Positions 9,907 to 12,668 of a stretch of 64,000 nucleotides of DNA are shown in pieces. Made by a program: the position numbers and the translations under genes. This DNA comes from Massalongia carnosa. Its lineage: Eukaryota. The notes beneath the pieces are model-generated. The model was not told the origin of the DNA, made no database searches, and saw nothing but the letters and a program-made list of their open reading frames with translations. The DNA lies in contig OZ287069.1 in assembly GCA_965645245.1 (NCBI GenBank), forward strand, positions 1,426,001 through 1,490,000. The letters are read 5' to 3'. The stretch's first letter is position 1; each line of letters starts with the position of its first letter.

Positions 9907-10919
9907 ATGACGAACACCCGTTCCCAAAGCACCTTGATGGACGACATAGTCCCCGACCCCCAGGAGATTGTCGGATTGACGCAGGCCCAATCTAATCAAA
10001 TCTTCGCCCTACAAAAGAAGAAAGCCGAGGCGGAAGCGAAGGCGGCCGAGGCTGAGGCTAGAATTGCCGAGTCCAAGGCATTGGTCGCCGAGAAGGAGGT
10101 GGAAAAATGCAGCTAGAAATCGACTGCATGCGCCGAGAATCTGACGCCCGAATAGCGGCCGTCATTCCTGCTGGCAAGCCGAGTCGTGTCGTCGGCGATG
10201 ACGACGAGGACCTAGGTGAGATCCCTCTCGAAGTAAGAAGCATAGCACCCCGTTTCGCGGGCCTACCACAGGACGAGATCATCAAGATCTTTTCAAATAA
10301 ATTCAAAGCCATCAACCTCTCCCGCCTCCGACACATGCACGGCATGCAATACGAGTCATACAAGGATCAAGACCGCATCGGCATCGAAGACGGCGCCTTG
10401 AGGTTGAGAAAGGCATCCGGGACCTACAAAGATTTCGGAAAGACAGTTCATGACGTCTGGACCGAGAGCTTCATCAACTACACCTCGATCATGGTCAGTC
10501 TTTTCGGGAAATCGAGTCAACAGCTTCACGCCACCATGTCGGCATTCCACGGAAAAATCCTCACGCTGGCCAAGGTGTACGAGTGGCAGGAAGCAGTCCT
10601 CCCCCTCGCCATCGAAACCCACACCTACATCATCGCGTCTCAGCCATCCGACGCATCCCAATGGAAAATGCCCGACGAATTCCAAGCTCGATTCTGCACC
10701 CCCCTCACAGTCCTACGCCGTCGCCGCTCACGATCCCCGCCATCCCGACGACCGACCCCGAGAGGAGACAGGGCCGAGAGGGCCGAGAAGGCAGCGGGGG
10801 AAATCTGCGACAAGTACAACAGCGGCACCTGCACCTGGCCGTCGTGCTACCGACAGCACAAATGCAAATCGTGCGGCGCGGCTGGGCATGGCCAGAAGAC
10901 ATGCCCAACGAAGAAATAG
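9907..10919 (+). CDS. YR retrotransposon Gag-like protein (coiled-coil N-terminus, CCCH and CCHC zinc fingers); one-base frameshift in an A-run at about 10103-10107
   Basis: ATG at 9907; the frames of ORFs 9883-10116 and 10107-10919 join if GGAAAAATG had one more A; C-terminal CDKYNSGTCTWPSCYRQHKCKSCGAAGHGQKTC. Confidence 0.82.
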
Positions 10920-12668
10920 GGGGTTGGTGCAGGAGGCAGTAGAATAGCTTCAATAGCTGAATTCATGACGTCCCATCCCTGCTTACCTGCACCAATCAGA
11001 CCAAATACAATCCCTTCGTTTCAACTCGTAGACGCATCTCGTCAGCGTTTGAAAGACAGCCCATCTCCCCTCGTACCGTCCGCATGGGCAACCCTACTTC
11101 AAGAGTATCCGGGCCCCCTCCGAGTCCATCTGCCCATGATCCTTCGTTTCGGAGTACAAATCGGATACGAAGGCCCCACAGACATCCTTCGGATCGAAAA
11201 AAATCTGACATCAGCGAATGAGGACCCGGAAACGATCGAGAATAAGCTTCAAGAGGACCTCAGGAAGGGCCGAGTCAGACGAATAGCCGCCCCGAGTCAG
11301 CCATTTGTGGCCTCCCCCCTCGGCTTGGTCCCGAAACATGACGGAGGATGGCGACGCATTCATCATCTGTCTCATCCCAATCAAACATCAGTCAACGACA
11401 ACATTCCAGAAGAGGCATCCAAATTACAATACGCCAGACTCGACGACATTATTCAATTGATTCTGTCAGAGGGCAAAGGTGCTGTCATAGTGAAAAGAGA
11501 CGTCAAAGACGCCTTTCGAAACGTTCCCGTCGCACCTCATCATCAATGGCTTCTGGGTTTCGGATGGAATGACGAATTCTACACCGAGACATGCCTTTCG
11601 TTCGGACTGTCGACGGCCCCGTTCATCTTCAATCTTTTTGCGGAAGGCTTTCATTGGATTTTGGAATCCTTTCTACAATGGAGATTACATCACTATCTAG
11701 ACGACTTCGTTGCAATTTTCCCATCCGAGACATCGTCAGAACGATTGCACCAAGAAACAAAAGCCTACAACATTCTCACCGACATTCTCGGCATCCCGAG
11801 AAACGACTCAAAAGACGCCGAGGGAACGACAGCGACAGTCTTCGGACTCGAGGTCGACACCATCAACAGTCTTATTCGTCTGCCAGCGGACAAGCTGGAA
11901 AAAGCGAGAATCATCACTACAAAGGCACTAAACGAGACGACAATCAGCCTCGGCGACATGCAGTCAATAGCGGGCTTCCTAAGCTTCTGCGCACAGGCAG
12001 TCAAATTGGGCCGAGTCTTCTTACGATTATTCTGGAATTTTATAGCCTCATTTCCCTCGGGCAGTCATCATCGGGTCAAAAGAAGAATTCCCACATGGGT
12101 CAGACAGGATCTCATCTGGTGGAACAAACTTTTAGTGGACTTCAACGGTATTGTCTTCTTCGAGATGTCAACACGAGACACGATCAAGGTGCATACGGAT
12201 GCATGCCTCACGGGTCTCGGAGGCTATTTTCAACAAGCCAACGAGCTCGTGAATCAAAAAAACGCATGTAGGGCCCGAGTCCTAGTCCTCAATCAGGAAG
12301 AAGCACCGAGCATAAACGTCCGAGAAGTCGAGGCTATCCTTCTAATCCTTCAGAAATGGGCGCCGACATGGCGACATCGACAGATCCTTGTCTTTACCGA
12401 CAGCAACACAGCATACACAGGATTCACGAATCTAACCCTCAAGGGACCGGCCAACGCGCCTCTACGAGAAATACTGTCCATAGCTGCAAAGTGGGACATC
12501 GTACTACGTTGTCAATGGATCAGTGGCACTTCCAATGGACTAGCAGATGCCCTGTCACGTTTTGATGATGAAAGATTGGCTAACTTTTGCCCTCATTGGC
12601 AGAACCCATACAATTCGATGAACCTCCCTCCACCTACCTATCCTCCACACCAGGGTCAGCCCTGGTAA
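10920..12668 (+). CDS. YR retrotransposon reverse transcriptase-RNase H (first ATG 10965; frame open from the gag stop)
   Basis: SPLGLVPK..WRRIHHLS, DVKDAF, LSFGLSTAP, HYLDDF; RNase H TDAC / E / TDS / NGLADALSR. Confidence 0.95.
   Translation, partial: GVGAGGSRIASIAEFMTSHPCLPAPIRPNTIPSFQLVDASRQRLKDSPSPLVPSAWATLLQEYPGPLRVHLPMILRFGVQIGYEGPTDILRIEKNLTSANEDPETIENKLQEDLRKGRVRRIAAPSQPFVASPLGLVPKHDGGWRRIHHLSHPNQTSVNDNIPEEASKLQYARLDDIIQLILSEGKGAVIVKRDVKDAFRNVPVAPHHQWLLGFGWNDEFYTETCLSFGLSTAPFIFNLFAEGFHWILESFLQWRLHHYLDDFVAIFPSETSSERLHQETKAYNILTDILGIPRNDSKDAEGTTATVFGLEVDTINSLIRLPADKLEKARIITTKALNETTISLGDMQSIAGFLSFCAQAVKLGRVFLRLFWNFIASFPSGSHHRVKRRIPTWVRQDLIWWNKLLVDFNGIVFFEMSTRDTIKVHTDACLTGLGGYFQQANELVNQKNACRARVLVLNQEEAPSINVREVEAILLILQKWAPTWRHRQILVFTDSNTAYTGFTNLTLKGPANAPLREILSIAAKWDIVLRCQWISGTSNGLADALSRFDDERLANFCPHWQNPYNSMNLPPPTYPPHQGQPW

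Follow-up and report, generated by a model that had tools for sequence, protein, structure and literature searches.

Candidate stop codon readthrough between gag and reverse transcriptase in a tyrosine recombinase retrotransposon

Introduction

How does a retrotransposon make its polymerase when the gag and polymerase genes share one reading frame and are separated by a single stop codon? This question is raised by a retroelement copy on the + strand of a 64,000-nucleotide (nt) stretch of DNA from Massalongia carnosa (assembly GCA_965645245.1, contig OZ287069.1, positions 1,426,001 to 1,490,000), which is called the window here and numbered from its first letter. The copy contains three open reading frames (ORFs), encoding Gag, a reverse transcriptase/RNase H (RT/RH) and a putative tyrosine recombinase (YR). 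It is predicted to be a gag-RT/RNase H-tyrosine recombinase retrotransposon of Ngaro-like gene order, the label Ngaro referring solely to gene order because neither the split direct repeats of Ngaro nor the inverted terminal repeats of DIRS1 were found around the window copy. An earlier note on this DNA had proposed that RT is made as a Gag-RT fusion by programmed readthrough of the gag stop. This proposal is supported by the comparative evidence reported here, namely an in-frame stop in 29 of 29 lineages, a constant frame and a recurring RNA stem. Programmed readthrough of the gag UAG thus probably yields RT/RH as a Gag fusion, and a causal role of the stem in readthrough is marginally favoured.

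The gag stop codon, the linker and the stem in the window

The junction between gag and RT/RH comprises the following features:

10107..10919, + strand, open part of the gag ORF in the window (270 residues), ending in a CCHC knuckle, P-T-K-K and TAG
10917..10919, + strand, gag stop TAG in the context AAA-TAG-GGG-GTT, the proposed readthrough site
10920..10964, + strand, open linker of 15 codons, GVGAGGSRIASIAEF, with Phe as its last residue
10922..10939, + strand, 5' arm of the stem (RNA fold)
10979..10997, + strand, 3' arm of the stem with A 10985 bulged, covering the P-C-L-P-A-P-I codons directly before R-P-N
10998..11006, + strand, codons of the invariant R-P-N motif, which anchor the 3' arm of the stem in the window and in five other lineages
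10965..12668, + strand, RT/RH ORF, 567 residues from its first ATG at 10965 (Pfam and conservation)

The gag and RT ORFs lie in one frame (10965-10107 = 858 = 3 x 286) and the 15 codons between the gag TAG and the RT ATG are open in the gag frame, as the earlier note had described with all coordinates right. The pairing of 10922-10939 with 10979-10997 around one bulged A, also described there, was reproduced by RNA folding of 10914-11003, in which it forms a stem of 18 bp including two G-U pairs, with a structured loop of 39 nt, starting 2 nt past the stop. The minimum free energy of this fold was -34.5 kcal/mol (z = -3.76), a value equalled by 0 of 200 dinucleotide shuffles. The duplex of the two arms, calculated between the 33 nt past the stop and the 39 nt preceding R-P-N, reached -33.0 kcal/mol. 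Within the RT ORF it was stronger than 75 of 75 control windows and 150 of 150 in-frame positions at equal spacing, and when the 5' arm was shuffled, 199 of 200 shuffles gave a weaker duplex.

Copies of the element in contigs of three sequencing runs (three organism labels) are identical to the window over 10779-11092, including the TAG and both arms of the stem, and the word depth over this interval is about 250 in run X1. Since near-identical copies in three runs all keep the TAG, the stop belongs to a young, amplified form of the element; among these run contigs no variation or covariation was seen at the stop or the stem, the family being too uniform. The element or a part of it occurs in 13 runs from 11 studies with 11 organism labels, and in eight runs (six labels) at least half of the sampled words are present. 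This wide occurrence may reflect either one fungus in many sample types or an element shared between hosts.

Conservation of the in-frame stop

An alignment scan based on the N-terminal part of RT yielded 80 loci in metagenome contigs and three loci in prokaryote "genomes", each locus being anchored on its RT match and then walked upstream to the junction. Forty of these 83 loci were informative (plus the window), nine were open to the contig start and the remaining 34 were set aside as decayed with several stops, as having a late-starting RT match or as lacking gag. The informative loci fell into 30 clusters at 85% nucleotide identity and, after the decayed cluster L057/L068 was dropped, 29 lineages remained, the window and 28 from contigs of metagenomes or of mis-binned metagenome-assembled genomes (MAGs). 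Three loci (L081, L082 and L083) lie in MAGs labelled Kribbellaceae and Solirubrobacteraceae; their contigs are most likely of fungal origin and were assigned to bacterial genomes by mis-binning. A pattern scan of viral contigs returned 73 matches, which were rejected as chance; none encodes RT.

In all 29 lineages a single in-frame stop was found between the gag knuckle and R-P-N, all in one frame, at 1-34 codons past the knuckle. According to the earlier note, a sense codon at this position in homologues, or a variable frame between gag and RT, would speak against programmed readthrough. Across the lineages neither was observed, and the frame is constant although the linker from the stop to R-P-N ranges from 7 to 64 codons (28 lineages in which the motif was recognised), with no other stop. 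As these linkers stay open and in frame, all changes in their length are multiples of three. The stop itself is TAG in 20 lineages, TGA in six and TAA in three, and it has switched from one stop to another in three families (L010 with TAA and L011 with TAG; L019 with TAA and L024 with TAG; L032 with TAA and six relatives with TAG). The flanking ORFs extend over 178-437 open codons upstream, where the contig allows, and over 550-821 codons downstream in intact copies. Altogether, the sequence comparison indicates that the stop has been conserved in evolution, including changes from stop to stop.

A similar picture was obtained at the protein level. Among 47 Gag homologues in the protein collection, one of which is named from the lichen fungus Peltigera, the zinc knuckle is recognisable in 16, and 13 of these 16 terminate 1-9 residues past the knuckle.

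Two classes of signal at the stop

The nucleotide 3' of the stop is C in 17 lineages, G in 11 and A in one, and never T, and the codon 5' of the stop is AAA in 16 of 29 lineages and ends in AA in 19. Of the features that the earlier note proposed to look for in homologues, an in-frame TAG-G and a covarying stem, the in-frame stop is general, a G follows it in 11 of the 29 lineages and the covariation of the stem is partial.

Based on these contexts, two classes of signal can be distinguished. The first, found in 12 lineages, is a CAR context (R being A or G), in which the stop is followed by CAA or CAG and then by TTA, CTA, CCA, TTC, TCC or similar, usually after AAA; the exact CAA-TTA is present in L035 and L066, and CAA-CTA or CAG-CTA in L006, L007, L014 and L041. 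Two further lineages show other published readthrough contexts, TGA-CGG (L012) and TGA-CTA (L018). The second class is the stem anchored at R-P-N, which was called where the 33 nt past the stop form a duplex with a segment ending at R-P-N that is stronger than at least 95% of matched RT-ORF positions. It was detected in six of the 11 lineages with G after the stop (the window, L015, L016, L002, L009 and L082), in which the linker spans 78-168 nt, the loops differ in length and the 3' arm covers the C-x-P-A-P codons.

In the CAR class, the R-P-N-anchored stem is missing from all 12 lineages (Fisher p = 0.0046; for the empirical ranks, Mann-Whitney p = 0.004; lineages being treated as independent). 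In a quick RT tree of 26 rows, from which the short rows L052, L066 and L078 were left out, the stem-bearing L002 is sister to the CAR group L006/L007/L014 with a Shimodaira-Hasegawa-like approximate likelihood ratio (SH-aLRT) support of 100. A recognised stimulatory context or 3' structure is present at the stop, as the stem in the window and as CAR-type contexts in relatives, and the contexts of the YR lineages match published readthrough signals (PMC3159437, PMC10085805).

The core GGUGCAGG/CCUGCACC, whose 3' strand corresponds to the P-A-P codons, is common to the window, L015 and L016. These three sequences differ in the inner helix: the Cys codon ends in C in the window and in U in L015 and L016, and the partner of this nucleotide in the 5' arm is G or A accordingly; the next pair inward is G-C in the window versus C-G in L015 and L016, and a further inner pair is A-U in L015 versus G-C in L016. 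Several other pairs of the stem change on one side only among these three sequences, via G-U. RNAalifold on a MAFFT alignment, in which the inner helix was misaligned, returned 12 pairs, one with both sides changed, three with one side changed and one broken. In L002, L009 and L082 the helix is built from unrelated sequences. When the 5' arm was shuffled with its composition kept, the native duplex was reached by 1 of 200 shuffles for the window, 0 of 200 for L015, 0 of 200 for L002 and 1 of 200 for L016.

Alternative explanations

Several observations weigh against programmed readthrough, or against a role of the stem in it, and they bear on four alternative explanations. Most of them concern the stem. 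The covariation is thin because only three sequences carry the stem type of the window. G predominates in the 5' arms and C in the 3' arms (Pro codons), and arms from different lineages also pair well, with non-cognate duplexes reaching -20 to -35 kcal/mol; in a matrix of arms, which discriminates weakly, the cognate pair is the best in its row for six of nine lineages. As non-cognate arms also pair, part of the pairing could be an effect of composition. Five of the 11 lineages with G after the stop (L040, L042, L047, L051 and L052) lack a significant R-P-N-anchored stem, and the CAR lineages L014 and L046 have strong duplexes elsewhere. The lineages share ancestry, and the quick tree forces only a minimum of change in each signal class, at least three changes on well-supported branches. 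Finally, the spacer between stop and stem is 0-2 nt, atypical when compared with the 7-12 nt of characterised stimulators (PMC3159437).

The pairing of non-cognate arms, the atypical spacer and the five lineages without the stem would suit an explanation in which readthrough is real and is driven by the short context AAA-UAG-G alone, the stem being a by-product of GGN codons placed before CCN codons or serving another purpose. Such an explanation is considered unlikely, as the pairing is lost in composition-keeping shuffles of the 5' arm, and the peptides encoded by the 5' arms are unrelated (GVGAGG, GPPGGV, DKEGAD and GRGRST) although each arm pairs with its own R-P-N region. In addition, the paired changes fall at synonymous sites, and the CAR motif and the R-P-N-anchored stem exclude each other among the lineages. 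UAG-G is not known to be leaky when no stimulator accompanies it.

A second explanation dispenses with readthrough: RT/RH would be translated separately from ATG 10965 by reinitiation, leaky scanning or internal entry, and the stem would serve in the control of initiation or, for example, in packaging. In the window this ATG is in frame, 15 codons past the stop and within the loop of the stem, and the linkers of six further lineages contain an ATG as well. However, the conserved coding sequence of RT/RH begins at 10920, 5' of the ATG, and the Phe just 5' of Met 10965 is conserved in at least 90% of the relatives (F121, alignment A1); as this is the last residue of the linker, its conservation argues that the linker is translated. 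In the same alignment, the column of Met 10965 contains L, I, V or Q in nine of 12 aligned relatives and M in the other three. An in-frame ATG between the stop and R-P-N is absent in 20 of the 29 lineages, or in 21 if L014, with no ATG in the available stretch, is counted. These 20 have their first ATG 77-439 codons farther on, sometimes as late as within or past the RT domain, and in 12 of them the RT ORF runs over 550-821 codons. Independent initiation, reinitiation and leaky scanning thus fail for most of the family. In every lineage the reading frame is preserved and uninterrupted from the stop onward, and no start codon is conserved for the downstream ORF; separate translation is judged improbable.

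A third explanation is that a short intron across the stop is spliced out, the fusion being produced by ordinary translation of the spliced mRNA. Fungal introns are short, with a minimal donor consensus GTNNGT, and GTTGGT at 10923-10928 fits this consensus. This site lies 3' of the stop, though; no GT-donor-like site is present between the zinc knuckle and the stop in the window, or near the stop in the CAR-type relatives. As splicing, moreover, would not require an open linker in frame with the stop across many changes in length, an intron is very improbable.

The last explanation concerns the state of the copies. At the stop column, W is present in five database proteins (P0016, P0021, P0071, P0073 and P0131) and L in P0141, which could represent genuine sense codons. 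In each of the five, however, other unexpected W residues occupy positions that are R, C, L or G in relatives, and the protein collection accepts gene calls with TGA read as W; for these reasons, W at the stop column may correspond to TGA in decayed copies. None of these six junction-spanning proteins is encoded in the DNA of the fetched loci. Furthermore, the window copy may be inactive because of a one-nt indel in gag (see below), and no RNA runs are among the runs listed as containing the element. That the TAG arose by simple nonsense mutation in a dead copy with a fused Gag-RT ancestor, for example from TGG by the G-to-A change that repeat-induced point mutation makes, is nevertheless hardly credible in view of the three kinds of stop across all lineages with switches between close relatives, the otherwise intact flanking ORFs, the TAG kept in all contigs of three runs and the termination of most knuckle-bearing Gag homologues just past the knuckle.

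Proposed mechanism and implications

From the comparisons above we infer that readthrough occurs at the gag UAG, at some efficiency, and that it would be stimulated by the stem. Most ribosomes would stop at UAG 10917-10919, producing Gag, and a minority would insert an amino acid at the UAG and go on in frame through the 15-codon linker to produce a Gag-RT/RH fusion. Because the element has no protease, the fusion would stay uncleaved, and it could bring the polymerase into Gag assemblies. In the lineage of the window, the leaky signal would consist of AAA-UAG-G and the long-range stem. Once the stop occupies the A site, the outermost 8-9 bp of the stem would already be open. The inner helix of about 11 bp with its one-nt bulge would in this state be placed some 9 nt past the stop, presumably at the entrance of the mRNA channel, which is the position of the extended 3' stems in alphaviruses and furoviruses. 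Sister lineages would use a tobamovirus-type stop-CAR-YYN in place of the R-P-N-anchored stem. More tentatively, at somewhat below an even chance, it can be proposed that the whole fungal YR clade makes an uncleaved Gag-RT/RNase H by readthrough and has repeatedly exchanged the stimulators, a hexanucleotide or a stem anchored at C-x-P-A-P-x-R-P-N.

The author of the earlier note knew of no description of readthrough in YR retrotransposons, and this agrees with the literature searched, which excluded the original Ngaro description and two reviews and contained no report of translational readthrough in YR, Ngaro or DIRS elements. The terms "stop codon", "readthrough" and "read-through" do not occur in PMC3783388, PMC6681497, PMC3266345 or PMC9210276, and in PMC8547959 "stop codon" occurs once, on virophage ORFs and not YR elements. 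If true, the DIRS order would gain its first described recoding signal. The control of the Gag-to-polymerase ratio in YR retrotransposons, and the entry of a polymerase into particles when no protease is encoded, are essentially unstudied, and a conserved leaky stop offers a testable answer, in which RT would ride in as a Gag fusion. Related fungal elements with either a six-nt context or an RNA stem at one site would also be a compact system for comparing stimulators of readthrough. For annotation, gag and pol of these elements would have to be joined across the stop instead of being called separately from arbitrary ATGs.

Anatomy of the element and its surroundings

The other features of the copy are as follows:

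9781-9829 and 9855-9903, + strand, two direct repeats of 49 nt, 98% alike, just 5' of the gag start
9907..10112, + strand, N-terminal coiled-coil part of gag, in a frame that differs from the remaining gag in the window copy (translation; P0002)
10103..10107, + strand, A-run, one A shorter than in other copies
10863..10904, + strand, zinc knuckle C-K-S-C-G-A-A-G-H-G-Q-K-T-C (CX2CX4HX4C), read from the sequence
12587..13750, + strand, putative tyrosine recombinase ORF, in the -1 frame relative to RT/RH with an overlap of 82 nt, first ATG at 12950

The 49-nt pair is the sole repeat found around the copy, with no matching repeat 3' of the YR ORF, and is possibly part of a 5' untranslated or terminal region. 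No second copy of the element was found within the 64-kb window.

In the window the A-run consists of five A, whereas six are implied by contigs of two runs and by Gag proteins of 327 and 337 residues. The extra A, placed after 10102, is present in run X1 (depth 486/486, two contigs) and in run X8 (one contig). As the run is one A short, the gag start (ATG 9907 or 9937) is out of frame in the window copy; in the 100% identical protein P0002 (327 residues, from a cluster of 39 members) the sequence EVEK-MQLEID is continuous at this break. The proteins of this near-identical cluster have 270, 327 or 337 residues and are encoded on contigs of up to 3.8 Mb. The form of 270 residues accounts for nine of the 15 cluster members listed, so the short A-run is either a common variant or a homopolymer assembly error. 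For the gag ORF at 10107-10919 the Pfam zf-CCHC match was below threshold.

The RT/RH ORF matched RVT_1 with E 1.6e-12 and 48 bits (cut-off 29.6), and RT_RNaseH with E 1e-4 and 22.8 bits, slightly below the cut-off of 24.8; the ORF ends about 80 residues beyond the RNase H match. The recombinase ORF matched Phage_integrase with E 7e-4 to 1.6e-3 and 18.7-19.8 bits, below the cut-off of 27.1, and is kept in relatives (63 tblastn matches). It contains the residues GHSFRKG ... LGRW ... QLY, which we take to fit the HxxR / W / Y pattern. No Pfam match to an rve/DDE integrase, an aspartic protease or a methyltransferase was obtained in the gag, RT/RH or YR ORFs; the absence of the methyltransferase domain separates Ngaro from DIRS1 and PAT.

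Of the 22 lineages examined at the junction between RT/RH and the recombinase, 20 have the recombinase ORF in the -1 frame relative to RT/RH, whereas L041 has it in the same frame and L035 at +1. The ORF runs without ATG for up to 161 codons (the first ATG of the window, 12950, is codon 122), and homology to relatives begins at codons 1-13 in most lineages. In most lineages, not L035 and L041, the overlap (12584-12668 in the window) opens with the nearly invariant TAAC-NNN-TGY-CCN-CAY-TGG-CAG, which reads x-C-P-H-W-Q in the RT frame and past which the sequences diverge; the start of the recombinase ORF is the almost invariant TGYCCNCAYTGGCAG. No canonical slippery heptamer is conserved at this overlap in the lineages examined. 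The junction may involve either an unconventional frameshift or a splice acceptor at the CAG, and expression of the recombinase ORF may need a second non-standard event. In the distant protein P0120 (1202 residues, 30% identity), gag-like, RT/RH and recombinase parts apparently lie in one open frame, and fully fused forms may exist in other lineages.

Directly 3' of the recombinase ORF lies an element similar to long interspersed nuclear elements (LINE-like, 14097-17340), with an ORF of 450 residues (weak zinc-knuckle match) followed by an Exo_endo_phos_2 (endonuclease) ORF; its insertion from about 14097 may have truncated the 3' end of the YR element. Fragments of Ty3/gypsy-type RT, integrase and SH3 were found at 2656-5678, and a repeat of about 390 nt, 78-84% identical, at 3219-3599 and at 9210-9655, just upstream of the YR element. 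A SesA-NB-ARC-TPR protein is encoded among the neighbouring genes, which together with the Ty3/gypsy fragments and the LINE-like element suggest a filamentous ascomycete as the host.

Comparison with known systems

Fungal elements of the Ngaro/DIRS order encode gag, RT/RNase H and a frameshifted, overlapping YR, and lack a protease and a DDE integrase (Muszewska et al., 2013, PMC3783388). The window element has the same gene order with an overlapping, frameshifted putative YR and neither protease nor DDE integrase, but the typical terminal repeats were not found around this copy.

In murine leukaemia virus (MuLV), gag and pol lie in one frame and are separated by a single UAG-G followed by a 3' RNA structure, and a minority of products are Gag-Pol fusions (PMC3159437, PMC5009743). 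The likeness to MuLV drawn in the earlier note holds in principle, since both systems have gag and pol in one frame, UAG followed by G and a 3' RNA structure; it does not hold for the structure or the spacer. MuLV has a compact pseudoknot 8 nt past the stop with a specific spacer, whereas the window has a long-range stem that starts at 2 nt (0-2 nt in the window and its relatives) and encloses a loop of 39 nt, or of about 60-90 nt in relatives. With this spacer and stem the window does not conform to the MuLV pseudoknot type, no search for pseudoknot pairing having been made. Unlike MuLV, the element has no protease to cleave the fusion.

Among fungal long terminal repeat (LTR) retrotransposons, an in-frame gag stop with programmed readthrough has been described for Tca2 of Candida and for Tj1, Tcry1 and Tosmo1-3 of Schizosaccharomyces, and in Tj1 the stop is essential for transposition (PMC10085805). 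Like the window element, these elements reside in fungi and have a stop that separates gag from pol within one frame. They belong to Ty3/Gypsy or Ty1/Copia, encode a protease and a DDE integrase and have a GAA-TGA-CT context, whereas the window contains a YR element without protease.

The extended 3' stems of alphaviruses, furoviruses, coltiviruses and Drosophila kelch have at least 10 bp, a large, poorly conserved loop and compensatory changes, with a spacer of 7-12 nt and UGA-CGG or UGA-CUA as the usual context (Firth et al., 2011, PMC3159437). The window shares with them a stem of at least 10 bp with a one-nt asymmetric bulge, a large loop and, in part, compensatory changes, its type having 18 bp and loops of 39 to about 90 nt; the compensatory support amounts to three paired changes in three sequences, and to one by RNAalifold. 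It differs in its UAG-GGG context and in a helix that abuts the stop, so that only the inner 11 bp or so lie at a comparable distance. The short spacer, outside the range of 7-12 nt, is the main structural difference from known stimulators.

The tobamovirus UAG-CAR-YYA and the yeast CAR-NBA contexts, with adenines at -1 and -2 (PMC3159437), are resembled by the 12 relatives with AAA or AAG, a stop and CAA or CAG, all without an R-P-N-anchored stem. This motif is absent from the window element, and in several relatives the hexamer ends in C (CAA-TTC, CAA-TCC). In plant viruses a comparable division has been described, furoviruses having a structure and pomoviruses UAG-CAA-UYA without structure (Firth et al., 2011, PMC3159437), and it is similar to the split between stem and CAR contexts among the YR lineages. 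Altogether, the comparison supports what would be an established mechanism operating in elements of a class new to it, with an unusual stimulator and two types of signal that alternate naturally.

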